From an uncultured Thiothrix sp. (lineage in GTDB: Bacteria > Pseudomonadota > Gammaproteobacteria > Poriferisulfidales > GCA-002705445): a DNA stretch of 64,000 bases. Where the stretch lies: contig CACEJE010000001.1 of the NCBI GenBank assembly GCA_902559815.1, positions 36,465 to 100,464 of the forward strand, read 5' to 3'. Position 1 is the stretch's first letter, and every line of letters begins with the position of its first letter. A program made the translations under genes and the position numbers. A model generated the notes under the pieces. The model was not told where the DNA came from, ran no database searches, and saw nothing but the letters and a program-made list of their open reading frames with translations. This document shows, piece after piece, positions 5,681 through 32,697 of the stretch.

Positions 5681-6613
5681 TTATTCAAATTTTTTTCCTT
5701 TAAAATCAAAAGAATTAATAAAGCTTTCTGAACTTATTATTTTTGAATTATCTCTTTGAAGCTTTTTTATAATTAATAGTCCGTTTTTTGTGAATACCTC
5801 TATATACTTATCTTTAGTTGATTTAATAGTTCCAGGTATTCCGTTGACTTCTAATTCTCTATATTCACTATCGTGGATCCTGATCCTTTCTCCAGCCAAG
5901 TTTGTTTCAGCTATGGGCCAAGAATTAAAAGCCATAATTTTTTTGTGTATGTTTTTTGCAGAATTTTCCCAGTTAATTTTTGCCTCACTCTTTTTAATTT
6001 TTTTTGCGTAAGTTGCAAGATTATTATCTTGAGGATGCAACATATAGTTATTTTCCATTATTGCATCAAGAGTTAGTAACAAAGAGTCAATGCCAATTGA
6101 TATAAATTTATTATGAAGAGTAATTGATGAATCATTTTCTTCAATTGCAACTGGCTCTTGGTAAATTATATCTCCTTTGTCTAACTCGTCTGTCATCTTC
6201 ATGATAGATATTCCAGAAAGTTGGTCGCCATATTCAATAGCCCTTTGAATTGGTGCAGCACCTCGCCATCTTGGTAATAAACTTGGGTGAATATTTATAG
6301 ACCCGTGTTTGGGCACCGCTATAAATTCTTTTGGCAGTATTAATCCATAAGCTACTACAACTAATATATCTGGGTTTATTTCTGATAAAGCATCTGTTTC
6401 TTTAATAGTAATTTCCTCAGGTTGTCTTATCTCTATACCATTAAGTTTTGCAATATTTCTTACAGGGCTATGATTAAATTTAAGCCCTCTGCCAGATCTC
6501 TTACTTGGTTGTGTAAAGACACAAGCAATTTCGTGTTTTGAATTAATTAAAGCGGAAAGATAGCTTTCTGCAAATTGAGGCGTCCCTGCGAACACGATTT
6601 TTAATTTATTCAT
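5681..6613 (-). CDS. fmt: methionyl-tRNA formyltransferase
   Basis: 310 aa. IVFAGTPQFA and INIHPSLLPRWRGAAPIQRAI. def-fmt operon order. Confidence 0.9.
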   Translation of the reverse strand: MNKLKIVFAGTPQFAESYLSALINSKHEIACVFTQPSKRSGRGLKFNHSPVRNIAKLNGIEIRQPEEITIKETDALSEINPDILVVVAYGLILPKEFIAVPKHGSINIHPSLLPRWRGAAPIQRAIEYGDQLSGISIMKMTDELDKGDIIYQEPVAIEENDSSITLHNKFISIGIDSLLLTLDAIMENNYMLHPQDNNLATYAKKIKKSEAKINWENSAKNIHKKIMAFNSWPIAETNLAGERIRIHDSEYRELEVNGIPGTIKSTKDKYIEVFTKNGLLIIKKLQRDNSKIISSESFINSFDFKGKKFE

Positions 6614-7375: not shown

Positions 7376-7852
7376 ATGAAAGAAACAATTTTAGATGTCT
7401 TAATGTTTATGTTTCAAAGTTATGTAGAAGATAATGAAGAGGTTGAGCTTGACAAAGAATCTTTACATAAAAACCTTTCTGATGCAGGATTTGCCGATCA
7501 AAATATTGAAAGAGCCTTTGCGTGGTTAGAAGGATTGCCAGGCGTGGATGATACATCATTAATAAATAAGCCTACAAATAATAGTTTTAGATTATTTAGT
7601 GAAGCTGAACACTTAAAAATTGGAGAAGAAGGTTTAAGTTTTTTAATGTTTTTAGAGAGATTGGGTATTTATAATAGTGAAATTAGGGAGCATGTTATGG
7701 ATAGAATAATGGCTCTGGATACTCAAAGTGTTGATTTAAGTCAAATAAGATGGGTTGTTCTAATGATATTATTCAATACACCAGGAAACGAGAGTAGCTA
7801 TACCTGGTTGCAGAATCTAAATTCAGAAAAGGCATTACCTTATATACACTAA
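7376..7852 (+). CDS. smg: Smg protein (DUF494)
   Basis: 158 aa. The N-terminus MKETILDVLMFMF...NLSDAGF...AFAWLEGL is typical of Smg, and the position upstream of topA fits. Confidence 0.75.
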   Translation: MKETILDVLMFMFQSYVEDNEEVELDKESLHKNLSDAGFADQNIERAFAWLEGLPGVDDTSLINKPTNNSFRLFSEAEHLKIGEEGLSFLMFLERLGIYNSEIREHVMDRIMALDTQSVDLSQIRWVVLMILFNTPGNESSYTWLQNLNSEKALPYIH

Positions 7853-7888
7853 TTAGAATAAATAATTTTTTAAGAATTAGGCTTGATT

Positions 7889-10330
7889 ATGAGTGAGAAT
7901 TTAGTAATTGTTGAATCACCAGCAAAATCAAAAACAATTGAAAAATATTTAGGTAATAACTTTCGAGTTATATCAACCGTTGGTCACTTAAGAAATCTTC
8001 CCTCAAAAGAGGGCATAGATGTCAGTAATAATTATAAGATGAATTATGAATTGATTGACAGGGACCATAATAAACCACAACAGATTATAAATGATATTAA
8101 GAAAGCTTTGAAAAATGCAAAAAAACTTTTCTTGGCAACTGACCAAGATAGAGAAGGTGAGGTAATAGCTTGGCATTTAATTGATATTCTTGAAAAAGAA
8201 AAAGTTTTAGACGGAATAAAAATTGAAAGAATTGTTTTTAATGAAATCACAAAAAAAGCAATAATGGATTCTATACAAAATCCAAGAGAACTTTCTTACG
8301 ATCTTATTAATGCTCAGTTTGCAAGAAGATCAATTGATTATTTGTTTGGAATGGGCATATCCCCATTACTATGGGGAATAGGAATTAGAAAAGGTTCCGC
8401 AGGAAGAGTACAAAGTCCAGCTTTAAAAATGATTATAGAAAGGGAGGAAGAAATAAGAAAATTTATTCCTCAGGAATATTGGACGTTAAATGCAAATTTT
8501 GCAAAAGATTCTAAGTTTTTTGATGCTTTTCTGCATACTAATGATAGTAAAAAACTCTCTAAGTTTGATATAAATAACGAAAATGAAGCTCTAAAAATAA
8601 AAACTGAAATTTTAGATAATAATAATAATGATTTTAAAGTTTTAAAGGTTATTAAAAAGCAAAGAAAAAGACAGCCAGCAAAACCTTTTATTACTTCAAC
8701 ATTGCAGCAAGAAGCTTCAAGAAAATTAGGATTTGCAGCAAGAAGAACAATGAGTGTAGCACAAGACTTGTATACTGGAATTGATTTGGGTGAAGGCCCT
8801 GTGGGTTTGATTACCTACATGAGAACTGATTCAATAAATTTAGCTCAAGAAGCTTTAGATGAAATTAGAGACATTATTCCAAAATTATTTGATAAAGATA
8901 CTTTGCCCGACGAAAAGAGGCAATACACCAATACGTCAAAAAATGCTCAAGAAGCTCACGAAGCAATAAGACCAACTTCTTTCTCTAGAACACCAAATGA
9001 TTTAAAGAAATTTTTAAATAAAGATCAATTTGAATTGTATTCATTAATATGGAAAAGAACAGTAGCCTCACAAATGAAAGATGCTATTTTAGATTCAGTA
9101 TCAATAGATATTGGTTCTAAAGAAAATTTTTTTAGAGCCTCTGGACAATCAATAAATTATGCTGGTTTTATGCAAGTGTATTTAGAAGGCACGGATGACG
9201 AAGATGCTGATGCTGATTCTAAAATATTGCCGGCAATGAATGAAGGTGATGTTGTCAAACTAGAGAAGTTAGATGCAATTCAGCATTTTACAAAACCTCC
9301 GGGAAGATATACAGAAGCAAGTTTAATAAAAAATTTAGAAAAAGAAGGTATTGGTAGACCTTCAACTTATGCTGCAATTATTGAGACACTTCGATTTAAA
9401 GAATATGTAGAAATTGAAAATAGAACGCTTACGCCAACAGGCAAGGGAGCTTCAGCTTGTGCTTTTTTAGATAAAAATTTTAATGATTTTATTAAATATA
9501 GTTATACGGCAGAGTTAGAAGAAACTTTAGATAAAATATCTAGAGGAGAATCAGAGTGGATACCAACTACAGATTCTTTTTATAAACATTTAACAAAAAT
9601 GGTTGGAGATACAGAAAAATTATCACCAGAGGAGAGAAAACAAGAAAGAGTATTAGGGGTTGATCCAAAAAGTGGAAGGACTGTAAGCGTTAGACACGGT
9701 CCGTTTGGTCCTCATGCAATGATTGGAACAAAAGATGATCCTAAGGAAGCAGGAAAACCAAAGTCTGCATCATTAAAAAAAGGTCAAGATATAAATACAA
9801 TTAACCTAGAGGATGCCTTAGAATTATTTGTATTACCACGACTACTTGGTGAAACTCCAGATGGTGAACATATAACTGCTTGCTTAGGAAGATTTGGGCC
9901 TTATTTAAATTATGGGGAAAAGAAAAACTTATCATTAAAAGGGCTTGAAAAAGAAGGTGATGACCCATTTGATCCTTACACTATTACGTTTGAGCAAGCG
10001 CTGCCATTAGTTGAACAGAAAAAAATTATTGAAGCTAATAAAATAATACAAAATTTTGAAGAATCAGAAATACAAGTACTTAATGGCCGTTTTGGCCCTT
10101 ATGTAACTGATGGCAATAAAAATGTGAAGGTACCAAAAGAACAAGACCCAAAAGACTTATCATTAGCAGAATGCGAAGAAATGATAAAAAATGCGCCACA
10201 GAGAAGGGGAAGGTTTGGAGCAAGAAAGAAAGCTGTAACAAAAAAAAAGGTAGCAAAAAAGAATAAAACTAATAAAACAAAAACAAGTAAAAAAAAAGCA
10301 CAAGATAGCAATATTGGAAATACTATTTAA
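7889..10330 (+). CDS. topA: DNA topoisomerase I
   Basis: Toprim start LVIVESPAKSKTIEKYLG, DxDREGE motif (DQDREGE) and active-site region GLITYMRTDS. C-terminal repeats GRFGPY and a Lys-rich tail. The ATG at 7889 is preferred over the TTG at 7883. Confidence 0.92.
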   Translation: MSENLVIVESPAKSKTIEKYLGNNFRVISTVGHLRNLPSKEGIDVSNNYKMNYELIDRDHNKPQQIINDIKKALKNAKKLFLATDQDREGEVIAWHLIDILEKEKVLDGIKIERIVFNEITKKAIMDSIQNPRELSYDLINAQFARRSIDYLFGMGISPLLWGIGIRKGSAGRVQSPALKMIIEREEEIRKFIPQEYWTLNANFAKDSKFFDAFLHTNDSKKLSKFDINNENEALKIKTEILDNNNNDFKVLKVIKKQRKRQPAKPFITSTLQQEASRKLGFAARRTMSVAQDLYTGIDLGEGPVGLITYMRTDSINLAQEALDEIRDIIPKLFDKDTLPDEKRQYTNTSKNAQEAHEAIRPTSFSRTPNDLKKFLNKDQFELYSLIWKRTVASQMKDAILDSVSIDIGSKENFFRASGQSINYAGFMQVYLEGTDDEDADADSKILPAMNEGDVVKLEKLDAIQHFTKPPGRYTEASLIKNLEKEGIGRPSTYAAIIETLRFKEYVEIENRTLTPTGKGASACAFLDKNFNDFIKYSYTAELEETLDKISRGESEWIPTTDSFYKHLTKMVGDTEKLSPEERKQERVLGVDPKSGRTVSVRHGPFGPHAMIGTKDDPKEAGKPKSASLKKGQDINTINLEDALELFVLPRLLGETPDGEHITACLGRFGPYLNYGEKKNLSLKGLEKEGDDPFDPYTITFEQALPLVEQKKIIEANKIIQNFEESEIQVLNGRFGPYVTDGNKNVKVPKEQDPKDLSLAECEEMIKNAPQRRGRFGARKKAVTKKKVAKKNKTNKTKTSKKKAQDSNIGNTI

Positions 10331-22182: not shown

Positions 22183-23328
22183 TTATAGTTCATAACTATA
22201 TCTTAAACCTAAGCCAAATCTTTCCGTCACTTCAAGCTCTTCATCAGTTCTTTTGAATCCAAAGCTAAGTGAAAGTTTTTCTGATAATGAATACCCAATA
22301 GAAATTTGTAACAATTTACCATCAGCTCCTTCAGCTTCCTCGTCAGCTACGTTATCTACAAAAGTATATGTAGTGCTGAAATTCCAAGGGAAAAGATTTA
22401 AGCCTAGAGAACTTGTAAAATAAGATCTGTCATGACCTGCTTCACCGTTATAATGATTGATATCCATATATTCAAAAATTATGGTTTTACTAATTTGTGA
22501 ATCAAAATTTTCTTTGTATCCAAGAGAGATTGAATATCTGGTTTCATCATTATCATTATTTATACCTTTTTTTTGTAAAGCGTATCCTAGTCTGTAAAAA
22601 ATTCTCTCTGCAAAATTATTTTCTAGAGAATAAAAATCTTTCCCTCCAATTGAAATAGCATAGGAATCAAAATCTTCTGTATTCGCTAATCCCCCATCTT
22701 TTTTACTTGTATGTCCTCTTTGATCAACTATAGCATCACTTAAAAATGTTGTATCCGCAAAAAAAGTGCTTATATTAAATTTGTGAGTACCAAAATCTTT
22801 AAAATTTGCTGAATATTTTAGACCGACACCAATACGTTCAGCTATTTTATATTCTTCAATCATTGAGTAAGAATATAAGCCAGGAAAACTATGATAATCT
22901 AGACCGACTTTCGGATTAAACTTGCCGGCATAAGCAGAAAAATCTTTATGACTATATTTCACTGTCAATGATTCTACAATAACTGGATGATCTTCAAAAA
23001 ATCTACTGTCACCATCATGAGATCTTGTTACGCCGCCGTGAGCATGGCCAGCTGGTTCTCCTTCGACTTTAATATTTGCATCAATGTTAAGATTTTCATA
23101 TATTCTTGAGCCAAGCTCAATATGTGAATGCGTATAAATTTCATTTACCTCTTCATCACCTTCTTCTGCATCACTAATATGATCTGCGTGAAGACGTATA
23201 CCAATATGTCCATAAAATGATTTGTCTGAATGAGCAGAGTGATCATGGTCATGTTCTTCTTCTGCAATTGAATATTTATTTATAAAAAATGAAGCAAGTA
23301 TTATATAAAATAAAAGTTTATATTTCAT
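22183..23328 (-). CDS. histidine-rich porin-like outer membrane beta-barrel protein (Zur-box associated)
   Basis: 381 aa with a signal peptide, then EEEHDHDHSAHSD and further H-rich stretches (PAGHAHGG). Alternating amphipathic strands run to the C-terminus. A Zur-box palindrome lies 30 bp upstream. Confidence 0.6.
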   Translation of the reverse strand: MKYKLLFYIILASFFINKYSIAEEEHDHDHSAHSDKSFYGHIGIRLHADHISDAEEGDEEVNEIYTHSHIELGSRIYENLNIDANIKVEGEPAGHAHGGVTRSHDGDSRFFEDHPVIVESLTVKYSHKDFSAYAGKFNPKVGLDYHSFPGLYSYSMIEEYKIAERIGVGLKYSANFKDFGTHKFNISTFFADTTFLSDAIVDQRGHTSKKDGGLANTEDFDSYAISIGGKDFYSLENNFAERIFYRLGYALQKKGINNDNDETRYSISLGYKENFDSQISKTIIFEYMDINHYNGEAGHDRSYFTSSLGLNLFPWNFSTTYTFVDNVADEEAEGADGKLLQISIGYSLSEKLSLSFGFKRTDEELEVTERFGLGLRYSYEL

Positions 23329-23357
23329 TTAAATCTCCATAACGTGAAAAGTATGTT

Positions 23358-23374
23358 ATGTTATATTATAACAT
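23358..23374. promoter_or_regulatory. Zur box (perfect palindrome ATGTTATATTATAACAT)
   Basis: 17-bp perfect inverted repeat matching the gammaproteobacterial Zur operator core (GAAATGTTATAATATAACATTTC). It lies between the znuB stop and the OMP start. Confidence 0.7.
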
Positions 23375-23399
23375 TTAGTAATGTCAATATATTATTTTT

Positions 23400-25377: not shown

Positions 25378-25409
25378 ATCTAAAAATATAAAATGTGTTG
25401 TAATTAGTT

Positions 25410-25426
25410 ATGTTATAATATAACAT
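25410..25426. promoter_or_regulatory. Zur box (perfect palindrome ATGTTATAATATAACAT) in the zur-znuCB / znuA divergent promoter
   Basis: 17-bp perfect inverted repeat, identical to the Zur consensus core, centred in the 99-bp divergent intergenic region. Confidence 0.78.
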
Positions 25427-25476
25427 TTATTTAAAAAATTTAGCAATTTTTTAATTATCAATTTAGGATATCATTT

Positions 25477-26388
25477 ATGTATAAAAAAGTATTTATAATT
25501 ATTCTCACCTTTTTTAGTTGTTGCAATGCTTTTGCTAGCAAACCACTTATTGTTGCTAGCATAAATCCACTCCATTCAATAGTAACCTCTATAGTTGGAA
25601 ATACAGGGAATGTCTCTTTATTAATTGAAAGCAATACTTCGCCACACAATTTTGCTTTGAAGCCATCCCATGCAAAATTATTGAATAACGCAGAAATATT
25701 TTTTTATATTGATGATCAGCTTGAATCAGCACTAAAAAAAACTATTAAAAGTCTTCCTAAAACTGTAAAAGTCAAAAAAGTTTCGCAATTTAAAAATTTA
25801 AAGCTCTTGCCTGTTAGAGAAAATCTGAATTGGGAAGAAGATGGACATGGCCACAATCACGATCATGATCACGGTTCATATGATATACATTTTTGGCTTG
25901 ATACTCAAAATGCAATTGAGATAGCAAAAGGTGTTACTCAAGAACTTAGCAAATTATACCCAGAAAATATTAATACTTATAAAAAAAATGCAAAAAAACT
26001 TATTACTAAGATTAAGACAAAAGATAATTCTATAAAATTAAAATTAAAAGAAGTTAAGAATAAGCCATATATAGTTTTTCATGATGCGTACCAATATTTT
26101 GAGAAAGCTTATAATTTAAATGCAATAGGGTCCATATTACTTAACCCTGAACAACCACCATCACCTAAGCGAATAATTAAAATAAGGTCTAAAATTAAAA
26201 CGTTAAATGCATATTGTGTTTTTAAAGAGCCGCAGTTTAAAGCGCAAATTGTTAATACTGTGATTGAAAATACAAATGCAAAAGTTGGCACATTAGATCC
26301 ATTAGGTTCAAATATAGTTTCCGGTCAAGATATGTACATCAATTTATTAGATGATCTTGCTACTAATCTTAAAAACTGTCTAAAATAA
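25477..26388 (+). CDS. znuA: zinc ABC transporter periplasmic binding protein
   Basis: 303 aa with a signal peptide. Cluster A-I binding-protein fold with the ZnuA-specific His/acid loop EEDGHGHNHDHDHGS. Confidence 0.88.
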   Translation: MYKKVFIIILTFFSCCNAFASKPLIVASINPLHSIVTSIVGNTGNVSLLIESNTSPHNFALKPSHAKLLNNAEIFFYIDDQLESALKKTIKSLPKTVKVKKVSQFKNLKLLPVRENLNWEEDGHGHNHDHDHGSYDIHFWLDTQNAIEIAKGVTQELSKLYPENINTYKKNAKKLITKIKTKDNSIKLKLKEVKNKPYIVFHDAYQYFEKAYNLNAIGSILLNPEQPPSPKRIIKIRSKIKTLNAYCVFKEPQFKAQIVNTVIENTNAKVGTLDPLGSNIVSGQDMYINLLDDLATNLKNCLK

Positions 26389-26450: not shown

Positions 26451-26499
26451 TGAGAATAATTCTCATTTGCTATTGCAAATGATATTAATAATCATTATC
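26451..26499 (+). promoter_or_regulatory. tandem Fur boxes upstream of the porin-like gene
   Basis: 26451-26465 is TGAGAATAATTCTCA, a perfect palindrome matching 13/15 of the 7-1-7 motif TGATAATNATTATCA. 26481-26499 is GATATTAATAATCATTATC, matching 17/19 of the GATAATGATAATCATTATC consensus. Confidence 0.68.
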
Positions 26500-26535
26500 A
26501 TTAAGTTCAGATTAATAATTTTAAAGGATGTAATA

Positions 26536-27747
26536 ATGAAAAAAGTAGGACTAATATTTGTATTAATGTTTACGTCTGCTTTAAATGCAGAAACACTAGA
26601 GCACGTGGAAGAAGAAGTGCATATTGCATTAGAAACAATCGGCCAACTAAAAGCTGAAATTAATGAGTTGAAAGAAATTGTTAAAATGCAAGGTGAAATT
26701 CAAGAATCTACGACATCAAGAATTGCTAAAACAGCAAAAAAGTTTGAAAAACTTCATCTTGGTGGATATGGCGAATTACATTATAACGATACGGAAACAG
26801 ATGGAGGAACCAAATCAAAGAGTATGGACGCTCATAGATTTGTTTTATTCTTTGGTTATGATTTTAATGAGAAAGTTAGATTCAGATCGGAATTTGAGTT
26901 GGAACACGCTTTAGTAAAAGACACAGCGGATGGTTCAAATGGCGGTGAAGTAGAACTAGAGCAAATGTATATAGAAATGGATTTGTCAGACGCAACGTCT
27001 TTAAGAGCTGGTGTAATTTTGATTCCGATGGGTATTCTAAACGAACATCATGAGCCACCAACATTTTATGGTGTGGAAAGAAACGACGTTGAAAAATATC
27101 TAATTCCTACAACTTGGTGGGCAGGTGGTGTTGAAGTAGTTCATAAAACGAAAAATGGTTTTATGTTCGAAGCTATGCTTCACGAGGGAATGAAAGGAAG
27201 TGCAACAACAGGATATATAAGAGGTGGTCGCCAAAAATCTGCAAGCGCTACTGCAAATGATTTAGCATATACCGCAAGAATTACATACACCGGTATTCCA
27301 GGCTTGAAAGCATCACTCTTCTATAATCATCAGGCTGACTTTACTCAGGATTCTGGGGACAACATTGATAAGCTTGATATTATGGGCGCATCAGCAATTT
27401 ATCAATTTGGATCAGGCTTTGAGGTAAGAGGCTTACACGTTCAAGCTGAATTTGATGGAAAGGATGAGTCGGGTACATTTTTCACAAATGGTTTTGACGA
27501 ACAACAAGGAACGTTTTTAGAGGTTTCAAAAAGATTTGGAAATGTAGGTTTCTTTGCTAATAATTCTGTTGTATCAGGAGAAAGTATCTCTAGACAATAC
27601 ACAGTTGTTCAATATGGATTTAGCTGGTGGCCACAAGGAACTGACGCAGTAATAAAAGCAAATTGGTATGATAAAGAATATTCAAACCCATCAAAAGATA
27701 GTAGTGATGCTGACGGTATTCATTTGGGCATGGGTTATGAATTTTAA
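26536..27747 (+). CDS. porin-like outer membrane beta-barrel protein with N-terminal coiled coil (Fur-box associated)
   Basis: The ATG at 26536 gives the signal peptide MKKVGLIFVLMFTSALNA. A short coiled coil is followed by amphipathic strands, and the protein ends GMGYEF (C-terminal Phe OMP signature). The track ORF start at 26467 would place the Fur boxes inside coding sequence. Confidence 0.62.
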   Translation: MKKVGLIFVLMFTSALNAETLEHVEEEVHIALETIGQLKAEINELKEIVKMQGEIQESTTSRIAKTAKKFEKLHLGGYGELHYNDTETDGGTKSKSMDAHRFVLFFGYDFNEKVRFRSEFELEHALVKDTADGSNGGEVELEQMYIEMDLSDATSLRAGVILIPMGILNEHHEPPTFYGVERNDVEKYLIPTTWWAGGVEVVHKTKNGFMFEAMLHEGMKGSATTGYIRGGRQKSASATANDLAYTARITYTGIPGLKASLFYNHQADFTQDSGDNIDKLDIMGASAIYQFGSGFEVRGLHVQAEFDGKDESGTFFTNGFDEQQGTFLEVSKRFGNVGFFANNSVVSGESISRQYTVVQYGFSWWPQGTDAVIKANWYDKEYSNPSKDSSDADGIHLGMGYEF

Positions 27748-27785
27748 TAATAATTAAAATTTATGTTACACATTAGGGCGTGTTT

Positions 27786-27871
27786 GGCTAGTTAACAAAA
27801 ATGGTATAAACTTCTTCTCCTCGTTAATACCATAAAAATTTAAACTTCGATGTTAGCTAGCCAGCTTTTTT
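27786..27871 (+). terminator. long compound hairpin plus T-run after the porin gene
   Basis: The outer stem GGCTAGTTAAC/GTTAGCTAGCC (10/11) encloses the inner stem ATGGTAT/ATACCAT. It is followed by AGCTTTTTT. Confidence 0.45.
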
Positions 27872-27880
27872 AAAAAAATT

Positions 27881-28390
27881 ATGAAAATATTTAAAGCAAT
27901 ACTAATTATCTTTTTAACAAATACTTTATTACAAGCAGAAGACGTAATAATGGATAAAAATACTTTTATAAAAAAAGCTTTAAATGTAAATGAAGTACCA
28001 ATGCATTCTTATATAATATTGAAAGAAGAGATAGAAGAAGGAGTCACAAATATCCTTGAAGACACCTATCATTTACCAGTTATAAAATATTGGAAATCTG
28101 GAAATAAAGTTGCTTTTATACTAGAAGCAATCGGTAAACACGAATTTATAACAACAGGTTATGTTGTAGAAAATCAAAAAATTTTGGATACTAAAGTTTT
28201 AGTTTATAGAGAAAATTATGGATATGAAATAAAGTATGATTATTTTCTTAATCAAATTAGAGGTAACACATTAAAAGGTAATGGTAAGCTAACTAACAGA
28301 ATTGCAAATATATCCGGTGCAACTATGTCAGTAAATTCGATGAGAAAACTATCAAAGTTATCACTATTTTTATATTCAAAACTAAATTAA
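27881..28390 (+). CDS. secreted FMN-binding domain protein (predicted ApbE substrate)
   Basis: 169 aa with a signal peptide. C-terminal flavinylation-type motif NISGATMS ([S/T]GA[T/S] as in NqrC/RnfG). Confidence 0.62.
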   Translation: MKIFKAILIIFLTNTLLQAEDVIMDKNTFIKKALNVNEVPMHSYIILKEEIEEGVTNILEDTYHLPVIKYWKSGNKVAFILEAIGKHEFITTGYVVENQKILDTKVLVYRENYGYEIKYDYFLNQIRGNTLKGNGKLTNRIANISGATMSVNSMRKLSKLSLFLYSKLN

Positions 28391-29367
28391 TTTTCTATAT
28401 ATTTTAAAAATTTTTTTGAATAATATTTTTTAGTATGACTATCATTTGATATTATAAGCATTGAAGCAATATTGTTTTTATTTGAAAAATTTATAATATC
28501 TTTTACATCCATTGCTATTAATCCTGTAGCTATTGCATCAGCAATAGCGCATTCGTTGTGTACAACTGAAACTAATAAATATTTTTGTTCTTTATTCGAT
28601 AAATCTTTAGGATTTATAATATGACTAATATTATTATTTTTATATTTAATAGTATTATTATATGTGCCAGATGATGCAATGGAATATGTATTTGGTAAAT
28701 TTACATTTTCTATAAATTTATTCACCCGTGATGGATCGTCGATTGCAATAGTTGTAATTTCATTTGAGGTTTTTATTCGTATTTCACCTCCAATATTTAT
28801 CGTAAAGTCGCTTATATTTTTATCATCTAAAAAATTATATATAAGATCAACAGCATAGCCTTTAGCAATACCAGATAAATCAATAATAATATTTTTATTA
28901 TTTCTTTTTATCGTATTTTTTTCATTTAATAAGACAATATTTTTATAATTAAAATTATTTTTCCTGTTATTTGGAACTTTTACGGGGCTTTGGTAAAAAC
29001 CTTTTCTTATTTTTATATCTCCAATTGTTATATCAAAAAAGCCATCTGTCCTTTCGCTAGCATACATAGCTTTTTTTATAATCAAGAATAAGTGTTTTGA
29101 GAACTGCTTGATTAATTTATTGCTGAAGTTAAACTCGGATATCTCGGAATTTTCTTTATAATTTGACGCTGAATTATCAATATTATCTATAATATTATTT
29201 ATTCCTAAGTGTATTTTTTTTAGATCAAGATTATCGTCATATCCTTTTAATTCGATATAGAATATTGTTCCAAATGCATTTCCTGCGATAATATGGTTGT
29301 TACCATTACACCCAGAAAATAACAAAATAATTGTAGTTATTAATATTAAATTTTTAAAGATTTTCAT
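28387..29367 (-). CDS. apbE: FAD:protein FMN transferase (ApbE) lipoprotein
   Basis: 326 aa. Lipobox LLFSGC, DLSGIAKGYAVD and a C-terminal AIADAIATG motif typical of ApbE. Confidence 0.8.
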   Translation of the reverse strand: MKIFKNLILITTIILLFSGCNGNNHIIAGNAFGTIFYIELKGYDDNLDLKKIHLGINNIIDNIDNSASNYKENSEISEFNFSNKLIKQFSKHLFLIIKKAMYASERTDGFFDITIGDIKIRKGFYQSPVKVPNNRKNNFNYKNIVLLNEKNTIKRNNKNIIIDLSGIAKGYAVDLIYNFLDDKNISDFTINIGGEIRIKTSNEITTIAIDDPSRVNKFIENVNLPNTYSIASSGTYNNTIKYKNNNISHIINPKDLSNKEQKYLLVSVVHNECAIADAIATGLIAMDVKDIINFSNKNNIASMLIISNDSHTKKYYSKKFLKYIEN

Positions 29368-29436
29368 AGTAATTTTTTAATTATAGCAAATAGACTACAA
29401 AGTATCTTTTTTTTGTAATACAAATTATAATTACAT

Positions 29437-30048
29437 ATGCTTATTAAAATACATAGAATTTTTGGTATATCTCTAGTTTTTTTTGTTCTAGTTCTTTCTA
29501 TTACTGGATCATTATTGCAACATGCAGAAGATTTTAATTTAAGGAAAAGCTATGCTCCTGGATATATTGCGATAAAATTTTATGGTATACAGCCTTGCGA
29601 GATTTCATCTATTCAAGTGAGTGATAAGTGGATATCAGTTTGCAATGATAATTTATATTTTAATAGTACTAAAATTTTAAATAACATAGTATCGCTTCAA
29701 GAAGTGTATAAAGAAGATAACCTTTATTATATAAAATATGATAATCATCTAATTAAAATTGATAGCTCTGCAGAAATACAAGATATGATTCACTTGGACG
29801 AAAAAGATAATCAAAATGAATATAAAGTTCAGCTAAAGAAAAATATTGTTCCAGAAAATATTAAAGAAGAGATTAGAAAAAAAAGTTTATCGAAAACAAT
29901 AACTTATGAAAGAATTGTGGTTGATTTGCATTCTGGGAGACTATTCGGTGCAGTCGGTGTGACTTTAGTAGATCTTGTTACACTAGGTTTTATTATATTA
30001 TCTATTACGGGCACAATATCATGGATAAGGCATAAAAAATTTTATTAA
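29437..30048 (+). CDS. PepSY-associated transmembrane protein
   Basis: 203 aa. N-terminal TM with IHRIFG, C-terminal DLHSGRLFG followed by a TM helix and WIRHKK. This is the usual PepSY_TM signature. Confidence 0.6.
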   Translation: MLIKIHRIFGISLVFFVLVLSITGSLLQHAEDFNLRKSYAPGYIAIKFYGIQPCEISSIQVSDKWISVCNDNLYFNSTKILNNIVSLQEVYKEDNLYYIKYDNHLIKIDSSAEIQDMIHLDEKDNQNEYKVQLKKNIVPENIKEEIRKKSLSKTITYERIVVDLHSGRLFGAVGVTLVDLVTLGFIILSITGTISWIRHKKFY

Positions 30049-30094: not shown

Positions 30095-30664
30095 GTGGAA
30101 GAAAAAGATAACAAAGAAAAAATTAGCGATATAGAACTATCTTTGATAACCGCTATATCTAGTCTTGAAAATAAACTAGAGGAACTAGATCATAATATTT
30201 CCGCTATGCCAAAAGTAAATAATATTACAAATGTAAATAGTGAAAAAGAAAAAGAAATATTAAATAAAATAAACGAGTTGGAGAAAAAAATTTCATCAAT
30301 TGATTTAAGTTCAAAAAAAGAGGTTTCTGTAGATAAAAATAATGATTTTAATGATACTGCAACTAAAGGTAGGTTCAAATTAAAAAATAAAGGATATGCT
30401 GCAGCAGAAATACTTAGATTAAAAAGAATAGAAAATATAGAAAAATCAATAAATGACTTAACAGAAAGATTTAATACAAAATATGGTGAAAATCAATCAA
30501 ATTTTGAGAATAAAAAAAATACATATACAAATAATTATGAGGTTACAACTGAGGAATTTTTTGTAAGATCAAGAAGAATTTATTTTGGATTTTTATTTTC
30601 AATTATTATTGTATTTTTATTAATAATTTTGGTTAATGAAATAAGTATTTTGTCTCTATATTAG
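30095..30664 (+). CDS. hypothetical coiled-coil protein with C-terminal membrane anchor
   Basis: 189 aa with a GTG start. Lys/Glu-rich helical sequence and a single C-terminal TM (YFGFLFSIIIVFLLIILV). No recognisable family. Confidence 0.4.
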   Translation: MEEKDNKEKISDIELSLITAISSLENKLEELDHNISAMPKVNNITNVNSEKEKEILNKINELEKKISSIDLSSKKEVSVDKNNDFNDTATKGRFKLKNKGYAAAEILRLKRIENIEKSINDLTERFNTKYGENQSNFENKKNTYTNNYEVTTEEFFVRSRRIYFGFLFSIIIVFLLIILVNEISILSLY

Positions 30665-30858
30665 GAAACTAATTTGAATTTCATAATTAAGTTTATAATT
30701 TTTTTTTTAGGATTATTTGTCAAGATGTTTTCTTATACTTTACTTTTATTTTTTTTATTTTTTCTAGGAATAATATTATTTGTGTATATAAATTTTGGTG
30801 ATGAAATAACAATCATTATTGAGAAACTTCACCAAACTATTCCACAGGCTATTGCAAT

Positions 30859-32697
30859 TTAATCAATATCTAAAAAACTTTTTAATTGTTCTGATCTGCT
30901 AGGGTGTCTAAGTTTTCTCAGAGCTTTTGCTTCTATTTGTCTAATTCTCTCACGAGTAACATCAAACTGCTTTCCGACCTCCTCAAGAGTATGGTCTGTA
31001 TTCATATCTATACCAAAACGCATTCTTAAAACTTTTGCTTCTCTCGGGGTTAAAGATCCTAAAATACTTCTTGTTGCTTCTCCAAGACTTTCGTTTGCCG
31101 CTGACTCCATGGGGGTTAATATATTTCCGTCTTCAATGAAATCGCCTAAATGAGAGTCTTCGTCATCACCAATCGGTGTCTCCATTGATATTGGTTCTTT
31201 AGCAATTTTTAAAACTTTTCTTATTTTATCTTCTGGCATAGCCATTTTGATTGATAATTCCTCTGGTGTTGGTTCTTTACCATTCTCTTGGGTCATTTGT
31301 CTTGATATTCTATTTAGTTTATTAATAGTTTCAATCATATGCACAGGAATTCGAATAGTTCTAGCTTGGTCCGCAATAGACCTTGTGATTGCTTGTCTTA
31401 TCCACCAAGTTGCATAAGTAGAAAATTTATATCCTCTTCTGTATTCAAATTTATCTACAGCTTTCATCAGACCAATATTACCTTCTTGTATTAAATCTAA
31501 AAATTGCAAGCCTCTATTTGTGTATTTTTTAGCTATAGAAATCACAAGACGAAGATTTGCTTCAATCATTTCTTTTTTAGCACGTTTCGATTTTGCCTCA
31601 CCAATTGACATTTTTCTGTTAATCTCTTTAATTTCTGCAACTGTCAAATCAGTTTGCTCTTCTATTTTTAAAAGTTTCTTTTGTAGCTTAACTATTTCGT
31701 CTTTATTCTTTTTTAATTTTGCAGCATATTTTGGCTTGCCTTTTAATCTATTTTGGACCCAAGACAAATTTGTACTGTGTTCTGTAAAACTTTTAATAAA
31801 TTCTCGTCTTGGCATTCCTGAAGATGTAGCTAATTTAGCTATAGCTTTTTCATTCTCGCGAATTTTAGATACAATTAATTTTAAATCGTATTTCAATTCA
31901 CTTAAAAGAAGAGGAACAATCCTAAATCTCATAAAATAATCAGCAACTTTTTCTCTAGCTTTTAAAAGTTTTTTTGAGTCACTTTTTACTGCTGGCTGAT
32001 TGGTTTTTTTAAATAATTTTATTAAAGTTTCAAAATGTAATTTAGCTTCTTCAGGGTCAATACCGGTATCAATATCTGCCTCAGCTTGTTCATCATCTTC
32101 ATCTTCATCTTTTACATCATGGTTTGCAATTGCCTCATTGTCTGCATCAGGATCAATAAATCCATTTAATAAGTCTGTAAGTTTTAATCTTTCAATTTCT
32201 TCATCTTCATCTTCATCTTCCTCGGGCTGATTTATTACTAGCGCATAAGATGTAAGAAGTTTTTCAATTGTATTTGGATAAAAAGCTAAAGCATGAGTAA
32301 CTTGATTTATGCCCTCTTCAATTCTTTTTGCAATACTTATTTCACCTTCCCTTGTTAGAAGATTTACAGTACCCATTTCGCGCATATACATTCTTACAGG
32401 ATCAGTGGTTCTTCCAAATTCTTGATCAACTGTTGCAAGAGCTTGAGCTGCTTCTTCTGCGGCATCATCGTCAGTTGATTGGTTTTCACTAAGACTTAAC
32501 GAATCTTCGTCAGGTGGTTGCTCCTGAACAACTATACCCATTTCTGTAATCATGTTTATGATATCTTCAATTTGGTCAGAATCTACGATTCCCTCTGGCA
32601 AATGATCGTTAACTTCAGCATAGGTTAAATAACCTTGCTCTTTTCCTTTTGAGATAAGTTCTTTAATTTTAGTTTGTTGGTCTTGGGCTATAGTCAT
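30859..32697 (-). CDS. rpoD: RNA polymerase sigma factor RpoD (sigma70)
   Basis: 612 aa. Acidic region 1.1/NCR, region 2.4 [12 protein letters not shown] and region 4.2 [27 protein letters not shown]. Confidence 0.95.

Follow-up and report, generated by a model that had tools for sequence, protein, structure and literature searches.

A Fur-boxed porin, flavoprotein and PepSY_TM gene module as a candidate TonB-independent iron route in a marine gammaproteobacterium

Marine microbiology has yet to explain how streamlined bacteria of the ocean that have neither siderophores nor TonB-dependent receptors bring iron through both of their membranes. We addressed this question at one locus of a small marine gammaproteobacterium, near-identical DNA of which is found in many seawater, estuary and salt-marsh metagenomes. 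The window, by which we mean the whole stretch of 64,000 nucleotides analyzed here, corresponds to C1:36465-100464 of a 906,583-bp assembly (34 contigs, 29.6% G+C, about 80% complete). It contains a porin-like gene (26536-27747, plus strand), a gene for a 169-aa secreted protein related to the flavin mononucleotide (FMN)-binding FMN_bind family (27881-28390, plus strand), apbE (28387-29367, minus strand) and a PepSY_TM gene (29437-30048, plus strand). A preliminary description of this DNA had proposed that the four genes form an iron-starvation-induced, TonB-independent periplasmic ferric reductase and iron-uptake system. Our analysis bears out the details of that description, and each computational check suggested there came out in favor of its interpretation, in which flavinylation, haem binding and ferric reduction are predicted functions. 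We consider it reasonably probable that the module encodes a periplasmic Fe(III) reductase that uses flavin and is repressed by Fur, together with a porin as the entry route, and that this uptake does not depend on TonB. The computed evidence for this reading comprises what each of the four proteins is and how it folds, how specific the Fur sites are, and a gene order and Fur box that recur across phyla.

Does the locus respond to iron? Two Fur-like operators had been placed upstream of the porin-like gene and both were recovered, far above shuffle expectation. The distal operator, TGAGAATAATTCTCA (26451-26465), is a perfect 7-1-7 palindrome of the Fur type and the sole exact match to TGAGAATNATTCTCA, both in the window (0.00 expected from shuffles) and in the 906-kb genome. 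The second, the Fur box GATATTAATAATCATTATC (26481-26499), agrees with the consensus GATAATGATAATCATTATC at 17 of 19 positions, a grade of match expected 0.01 times per window from shuffles. When the motif was mapped genome-wide, this 19-mer was the single best match to the Fur consensus in the assembly and the only one with two or fewer mismatches; matches with three mismatches occur in two other places, both intragenic. A third 7-1-7 site with one mismatch, TAATAATCATTATCA (26486-26500), overlaps the Fur box. The operators had also been said to overlap the likely porin promoter. A consensus scan places a promoter-like TTGCAA-17-TATCAT at 26473-26501 (plus strand), and the 19-mer spans its spacer and -10 element, about 35 bp upstream of the porin ATG (26536). 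This arrangement would correspond to the classical geometry of repression. In a close relative (L003), a Fur site is found at an equal distance from the porin ATG. The porin-like gene thus has the consensus operator over its promoter that is expected of a Fur regulon member, in a genome that encodes the cognate regulator, a canonical Fur such as Gammaproteobacteria usually have (contig C10).

Zur, which is encoded in the window, was considered as an alternative regulator of the porin and rejected. The znu genes and the gene for a His-rich outer-membrane protein carry a different palindrome, ATGTTATAATATAACAT, present as a near-identical pair upstream of the His-rich outer-membrane protein gene (23353-23377) and between zur and znuA (25405-25430). 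Since the neighboring zinc genes use this different operator, the sites upstream of the porin, 1 kb downstream of these palindromes, are not Zur boxes.

Among the few other intergenic Fur-like sites of the assembly, the box AATGAGAAGTATTATCATT (C15:12695) sits between a branched-chain aminotransferase-like gene, named from its sequence, and a futA/fbpA-like iron ATP-binding cassette (ABC) operon. This operon encodes a 346-aa binding protein, a 508-aa fused double permease and a 353-aa ATPase. The binding protein matches the FutA/IdiA/FbpA structures 6g7n, 2pt1, 2voz, 8c4y and 1q35 (best 6g7n, E = 7e-83), and the FutA/FbpA-type system is the only inner-membrane iron importer visible in the assembly. 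A genome-wide search found no TonB-dependent receptor in the 80%-complete assembly, which extends the earlier observation that the window has none and fits the idea of a TonB-independent route. The window is also free of Feo and Ftr genes, as had been stated; searches for FTR1, Nramp and ZIP each found nothing in the 80%-complete assembly. FeoB was rejected likewise: the PF02421 matches are ordinary GTPases in the Der/Era size range, judged by open reading frame (ORF) length, and the same assembly contains no FeoB-sized ORF with a strong PF02421 score. Together, the Fur-boxed porin module and the Fur-boxed FutABC-like importer therefore make up the visible iron economy of this genome. Separately, a palindrome upstream of iscR-iscS-iscU-iscA, ATTGAGAATGCTTCTCAAT (C6:40766), resembles a Fur 7-1-7 site and could be an IscR site.

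What would the module do once expressed? The 169-aa secreted protein carries the motif NISGATMS at residues 143-150, as described before, with a predicted flavinylation site at Thr148 (codon 28322-28324) and a signal peptide that looks cleavable between LLQA and ED. Across 42 homologues reaching down to 23% identity, G146, A147 and T148 never vary and S145 hardly does. Of the family assignments proposed for the module, ApbE and PepSY_TM pass their Pfam cut-offs, whereas FMN_bind (PF04205) is borderline by hidden Markov model (HMM), scoring 21.5 bits as the called ORF and 22.9 bits when the genome is searched, where the cut-off is 22. A precomputed PF04205 match is on record for many homologues at 64-70% identity, and the fold confirms the assignment. 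The AlphaFold2 (AF2) model (predicted local distance difference test, pLDDT, 93.9) has NqrC/RnfG chains as its top 17 PDB matches in Foldseek, at probability 1.00 and with a TM-score of up to 0.59. The fold comparison was needed here; the sole match of the FMN_bind profile against the PDB, to DsvD, was rejected as spurious.

The convergent apbE product scores 173 bits against the Pfam model PF02424 (cut-off 25.6), covering profile positions 2-263 of 266, and 116 bits against the NCBIfam ApbE model, under that model's equivalog cut-off. Orientation and motifs agree with the preliminary description: the N-terminus MKIFKNLILITTIILLFSGC holds a lipobox-like FSGC (LFSGC), and DLSGIAKGYAVD is also present. 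ApbE is therefore probably an extracytosolic lipoprotein, as read from its sequence. The assembly contains a single ApbE and a single FMN_bind protein, both within this cluster, and profile searches of the assembly found no NqrC, RnfG or further FMN_bind protein, which suggests that ApbE is dedicated to the module. The secreted protein shares with NqrC/RnfG the fold, the SGAT motif and a neighboring ApbE. It differs in being a stand-alone secreted protein, whereas NqrC and RnfG are subunits of the Nqr and Rnf complexes.

The PepSY_TM protein is divergent from apbE and contains the motif DLHSGRLFG, both as reported earlier. It scores 38.7 bits against PF03929 (cut-off 28.8); in the scan of the window proteins PF16357 reached 18 bits only. 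Its 203 residues comprise two hydrophobic helices (about 8-28 and 172-195) and a periplasmic domain of about 140 residues. The PepSY_TM signature is common to this protein and to FoxB of Pseudomonas aeruginosa (7ABW), FpvG, FsrB and HiuB. A profile of its family matches FoxB with E = 1.7e-9: helix 1 pairs with transmembrane helix 1 (TM1) of FoxB and, less strongly, with TM3, and helix 2 pairs with TM4. The corresponding His residues, in WHR..G of helix 1 and H.GR.FG of helix 2, align with the HR and H.GR motifs of FoxB. H165 (DLHSGR) is invariant and H6 (HR..G) is kept in at least 90% of 19 PepSY_TM sequences. In FoxB, four helices surround two b-haems at the two membrane faces (bioRxiv 10.1101/2021.01.28.428567). 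The module protein, with two helices, is half of FoxB rather than a four-helix bundle in one chain. A homodimer would therefore be the simplest way to hold two b-haems, for which FezC is a precedent, and we regard the protein as a putative b-type cytochrome. FoxB is moreover a single 382-aa chain that lacks a flavoprotein partner and acts after a siderophore receptor of the TonB-dependent kind, whereas the module protein, which would need to dimerize, has a porin and a carrier predicted to be flavinylated as its partners, in an assembly with no TonB-dependent receptors found. As a side observation, an inverted repeat TGTAAT-N10-ATTACA (29415-29436) lies directly upstream of the PepSY_TM start, in the 69-bp divergent spacer between apbE and the PepSY_TM gene.

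The porin-like protein required a comparison of folds. By sequence alone its profile had no significant match in the PDB, and the window protein is under every Pfam cut-off (Porin_4, 21.7 bits versus 27), although 13 of 24 relatives match Porin_O_P. The AF2 model (pLDDT 81.6) shows, after a signal peptide, a long N-terminal helix or coiled coil (residues ~21-70) and then a 16-strand barrel, for which Foldseek returns chitoporin, OprP/OprO, PorB and OmpU at E ~1e-14. The family is large, with 1027 representatives of 50%-identity clusters at E <= 1e-30. In an alignment of relatives at 33-40% identity, save the closest and the most distant one, the invariant or near-invariant residues are Y78, E80, H82, D98, H100, R101, E119, E121, E123, H124, E142 and Q143. 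The loop P164-G-I-L-N-E-H-H-E-P-P-T-F-Y-G-V-E-R-N is also conserved; it belongs to the 163-194 loop, NEHHEPPTFYGVERN, which sits at the position of the constriction loop of 16-strand porins. Conserved Glu, His and Asp thus occur in several strands and in this loop (including E170, H172 and E173). The i, i+2, i+4 spacing of E119/E121/E123 and of Y78/E80/H82 places these side chains on one face of a strand, a face that may line the pore and bind a metal cation. The modeled barrel and constriction loop resemble those of OprP/OprO and other 16-strand specific porins. Unlike OprP/OprO, conserved Glu, Asp and His dominate instead of an arginine ladder, a coiled coil precedes the barrel, and the operator is of the Fur type in place of Pho control.

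Across species the genes of the module keep together. We scanned one genome per GTDB species with a degenerate pattern derived from the FMN_bind alignment, confirmed at least 553 relatives and kept 80 loci, in which gene order was read with iterated HMMs built from the window proteins. Porin, FMN_bind and PepSY_TM genes follow one another in the same order on one strand in about 55 of the 80 species-level loci, often overlapping or a few bases apart, with ApbE adjacent in about half of these. Carriers belong to Gammaproteobacteria, Burkholderiales, Alphaproteobacteria (metagenome-assembled genomes, MAGs, labelled Rickettsiales, Rhodospirillaceae and Hyphomicrobiales), Verrucomicrobiota and Planctomycetota, and include a MAG labelled Polaribacter. 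In one locus from Verrucomicrobiales (L006), all four genes form a single co-directional operon, at 36% (porin), 41% (FMN_bind) and 23% (PepSY_TM) identity to the window proteins.

The Fur box is conserved along with the genes. Each locus of about 12 kb was scanned with TGAKAATNATTMTCA (K = G/T, M = A/C, N = any base). In 30 of 53 loci the best match falls within the 400 bp around the porin start with no equal site elsewhere, for a chance expectation of about 4% (binomial p ~1.5e-27). Such sites include TAATGAGAATCGTTCTCATTA in Luteolibacter, TAATGAGACTCAGTCTCATTA in Akkermansiaceae and ACATGAGAATCATTTGCATTT in several Gammaproteobacteria, and a MAG labelled Rickettsiales (L036, 30% G+C) has a palindrome identical to TGAGAATAATTCTCA upstream of its orthologous porin, where sites almost identical to it are found in many phyla. 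The distal palindrome of our window is therefore a genuine Fur-type site, which did not arise merely from A+T-richness. Moreover, ExbBD adjoins the module in several Verrucomicrobial loci. Orthologous clusters thus speak for iron across phyla, in line with what the preliminary description had inferred.

In ten gammaproteobacterial loci (L013, L017, L020, L039, L042, L050-L052, L057 and L058), a gene for a secreted protein of about 275 aa lies on the opposite strand, about 100-300 bp upstream of the porin, with which it shares the Fur-box intergenic region. The protein has a Met/Gln-rich tail, QQMQQHQPQIQQMMQQMQQ, and matches no Pfam family. Met-rich tails are typical of Cu(I) binders. This neighbor raises the question of whether the metal could be other than iron, the module being a periplasmic Cu(II) reductase and uptake route, or a manganese route. 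The copper version has been proposed for CrpH of Bordetella, a PepSY_TM protein tied to copper and haem-copper oxidases (PMC13038864). We judge this explanation quite unlikely. Canonical Fur boxes are kept at the porin promoter across phyla, a similar Fur-like box precedes the FutA-like iron transporter of this genome, the neighborhood is without copper genes, and ExbBD accompanies the module in the Verrucomicrobial loci just mentioned.

Other loci (L063-L072 and L076-L086) exchange some of the parts. In the Nevskiales variant, DUF3034 and a small secreted protein (globin-like by eye) replace the porin, FMN_bind and PepSY_TM are kept, and no clear Fur box was found. A second variant, in Variovorax, Pseudoalteromonas, Acidobacteria, Verrucomicrobium and others, combines DUF6662, FMN_bind, ApbE and a cytochrome b561-like protein, and Fur-like boxes precede several of these loci. 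What stays constant is the combination of an outer-membrane protein with a periplasmic carrier predicted to be flavinylated, a b-type cytochrome in the membrane and ApbE. That parts are interchangeable across variants argues that outer-membrane protein, flavoprotein and membrane cytochrome operate as a unit.

The constant pairing of a barrel gene with the FMN_bind gene, whatever the barrel family (Porin_O_P-like, DUF3034 or DUF6662), is also what one would expect of an outward electron conduit. In such an arrangement the flavoprotein would dock at or in the barrel, as in MtrAB porin-cytochrome complexes, and chelated or colloidal Fe(III) would be reduced at the cell surface before it enters as Fe(II) via the same pore. 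The N-terminal coiled coil of the porin could span the periplasm, and flavinylated outer-membrane barrels (DUF3570) are known (PMC8238504). A metagenomic protein of 736 aa (P0261) even joins an ApbE domain (41-290) to this porin family (332-736); it could be a real fusion or the product of adjacent genes merged by the gene caller. However, a 16-strand porin with a constriction loop is too small for a 15-kDa domain. A flavinylation site on the porin itself was considered and rejected, the sequence being without [S/T]GA[S/T]. We therefore hold the conduit to be unlikely.

The reading that we favor, reduction in the periplasm, would proceed as follows. In this scheme flavinylation, haem binding and dimerization are predictions, and so are the course of the electrons, the choice of Fe(III) as acceptor and the selectivity of the porin. 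Under iron starvation, Fur would leave the operators at 26451-26500 and the porin would be made. Small Fe(III) species would then diffuse through its acidic pore, rich in conserved Glu and His. A PepSY_TM homodimer, holding two b-haems as FoxB does, would take electrons from a quinol or a cytoplasmic reductant and move them from the cytoplasmic side to the periplasm and onto FMN bound covalently to Thr148 of the secreted NqrC/RnfG-like carrier, the neighboring lipoprotein ApbE having loaded the FMN onto this residue. The flavoprotein would reduce incoming or ligand-bound Fe(III), which would release the iron from weak ligands, keep it soluble, trap it and maintain an inward gradient. The freed iron would be captured by the FutA-like protein and imported by the FutA/FbpA-type ABC system, itself behind a Fur-like box. 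For some FutA proteins, binding of Fe(II) as well as Fe(III) has been reported.

A bolder version of the same scheme, which we offer tentatively and find rather doubtful, would have the porin, the flavoprotein and the two-helix cytochrome physically joined into a single machine across the envelope, conserved from Proteobacteria to Verrucomicrobia and Planctomycetes. The porin coiled coil would tether the flavinylated reductase below a metal-selective Glu/His pore so that iron is reduced on entry. In streamlined marine bacteria without TonB-dependent receptors, such a machine would serve as the main way in for iron, independent of siderophores and TonB.

Several observations weigh against the proposed scheme. 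The first concerns transcription in this lineage. Between the porin and FMN_bind genes lies a structured element (27768-27872, plus strand; folding energy -26.6 kcal/mol, z = -2.7), in which a long-range stem, GGCTAGTTAACA / TGTTAGCTAGCC, encloses inner hairpins with a CU-rich TTCTCCT(C) motif and is followed by a T-run. The stem arms and the TTCTCCT motif are kept in L003 (~7840-7995), L007 (~5760-5925) and L009; no Rfam family matched the porin/FMN_bind spacer or the leaders at E <= 1. The element is probably a partial terminator or attenuator between the two genes, and could alternatively be a small RNA derived from the 3' untranslated region with an anti-Shine-Dalgarno loop. With this terminator-like hairpin behind it, the porin alone stands directly behind the Fur boxes in this genome. 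apbE and the PepSY_TM gene are separate transcription units whose intergenic regions contain no Fur-like site. Iron control of the redox genes therefore rests on synteny in other phyla. In addition, contigs 100% identical to the window, from four metatranscriptomes, cover the porin ORF only, so that porin transcripts are seen in situ and those of the redox genes are not. Contigs reflect expression poorly, and the pattern is consistent with strong porin expression and attenuated read-through.

These facts would also suit a chance neighborhood, in which only the porin is Fur-regulated and the flavin genes are unrelated housekeeping genes serving, for example, Nqr or Rnf maturation: a hairpin and T-run follow the porin, apbE and the PepSY_TM gene have separate orientations, and the RNA contigs cover the porin alone. 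This explanation is contradicted by the conserved gene order, which places porin, FMN_bind and PepSY_TM on one strand in about 55 of the species-level loci, drawn from several phyla, and the assembly shows no NqrC, RnfG or other FMN_bind protein for ApbE to serve. We consider it highly improbable.

The remaining points against periplasmic Fe(III) reduction concern its chemistry and its partners. The FMN_bind score of the window protein sits at the Pfam cut-off. The selectivity of the porin is deduced from its conserved residues alone, and conserved Arg and Lys are kept among them. CrpH, a relative of the PepSY_TM protein, serves copper and not iron (PMC13038864). Finally, with no Fe(II) permease (FeoB, FTR1, Nramp or ZIP) found in the 80%-complete assembly, the need for Fe(III) reduction is not obvious. 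This last point would favor an iron-sparing redox carrier, in which the flavoprotein replaces an iron-rich periplasmic cytochrome and passes electrons to another acceptor, for example in repair or detoxification, and the porin is no more than a general channel under shared regulation. A shift to flavin substitutes such as flavodoxin is a common outcome of Fur control. Meheust et al. note a redundancy of flavinylation with cytochromes (PMC8238504). Such a carrier would, however, leave the strict cross-phylum linkage to a specialized porin with an invariant pore loop unexplained, and no candidate terminal oxidoreductase is conserved in the neighborhood of the examined loci. It is in our view improbable, and periplasmic reduction of iron entering through the porin remains our preferred reading.

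How does the module relate to known systems? Meheust et al. (2021, eLife, PMC8238504) recorded PepSY-like flavinylation-associated systems in 3,040 genomes. A role in iron assimilation was inferred there from VIT1 and TonB neighbors and from Fur repression in Shewanella and Caulobacter, and none was characterized experimentally (PMC8238504). As in these systems (PMC8238504; Huang et al. 2024, mSystems, PMC11334425), a PepSY_TM or PepSY-like protein here accompanies an extracytosolic ApbE and a flavinylation substrate. The catalogue counts a PepSY-like gene within five genes of a signal-peptide ApbE or flavinylation substrate (PMC8238504), and in our window the genes are adjacent, which places the cluster in this class. 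PepSY-like systems typically have a DUF2271 substrate and DUF4198, whereas the substrate here is a single NqrC/RnfG-type FMN_bind protein; in a scan of eight proteins encoded by the zinc-gene cluster or the module, neither DUF2271 (PF10029) nor DUF4198 (PF10670) had a Pfam match. The PepSY_TM protein has two helices whereas three are described for PepSY-like systems, and a dedicated Porin_O_P-like porin leads the operon, while the word "porin" is absent from the Meheust paper (PMC8238504).

Among iron reductases, FoxB has been compared above. A second relevant case is VciB of Vibrio cholerae, whose gene is linked to a TonB-dependent receptor gene. Both VciB and FoxB are ferric reductases, and PepSY-like clusters have been linked to iron assimilation (PMC8238504; bioRxiv 10.1101/2021.01.28.428567). 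VciB is a small, iron-regulated, inner-membrane PepSY-like protein with a periplasmic loop, for which extracytosolic ferric reductase activity is reported (Peng and Payne 2017, as cited in PMC8238504). Unlike the module, VciB has no association with flavinylation components (PMC8238504).

Upstream of the module lie the His-rich outer-membrane protein gene (22183-23328, minus strand), then znuB, znuC and zur (minus strand) and znuA (25477-26388, plus strand). The two porin-like genes on either side of znu (22183-23328 and 26536-27747) were considered as possible paralogs, which was rejected (BLASTP E = 0.7). Downstream of the PepSY_TM gene are two small ORFs, followed by rpoD, dnaG and gltB. 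The small ORFs (30095-30862) encode a 189-aa coiled-coil protein anchored in the membrane at its C-terminus (30095-30664) and a 62-aa hydrophobic product. The coiled-coil protein was rejected as a core part of the module, with matches in just the six closest loci (L003-L005 and L007-L009).

Our literature search on porin, FMN-binding, PepSY and Fur in combination, or on DUF3034 and DUF6662, returned nothing relevant, and we came upon no publication on the operon that combines a porin, FMN_bind and a two-helix PepSY_TM gene, or on its conserved Fur box. The cross-phylum Fur box is a new observation; the parts themselves are ordinary. What is noteworthy is the dedicated outer-membrane partner, the breadth of distribution and, apparently, that this is the only specialized outer-membrane iron route in a marine genome without receptors. 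The parts are small and expressible, so the idea can be tested, and cultured carriers exist in Roseibacillus persicicus and, for the variant, Variovorax. The module extends the PepSY-like flavinylation class by an outer-membrane component and by the interchangeability of the membrane cytochrome and the outer-membrane protein. For bacteria of this kind it is a concrete and widespread candidate route for iron, with about 1000 porin representatives at 50% identity and FMN_bind relatives in at least 550 species-level genomes.

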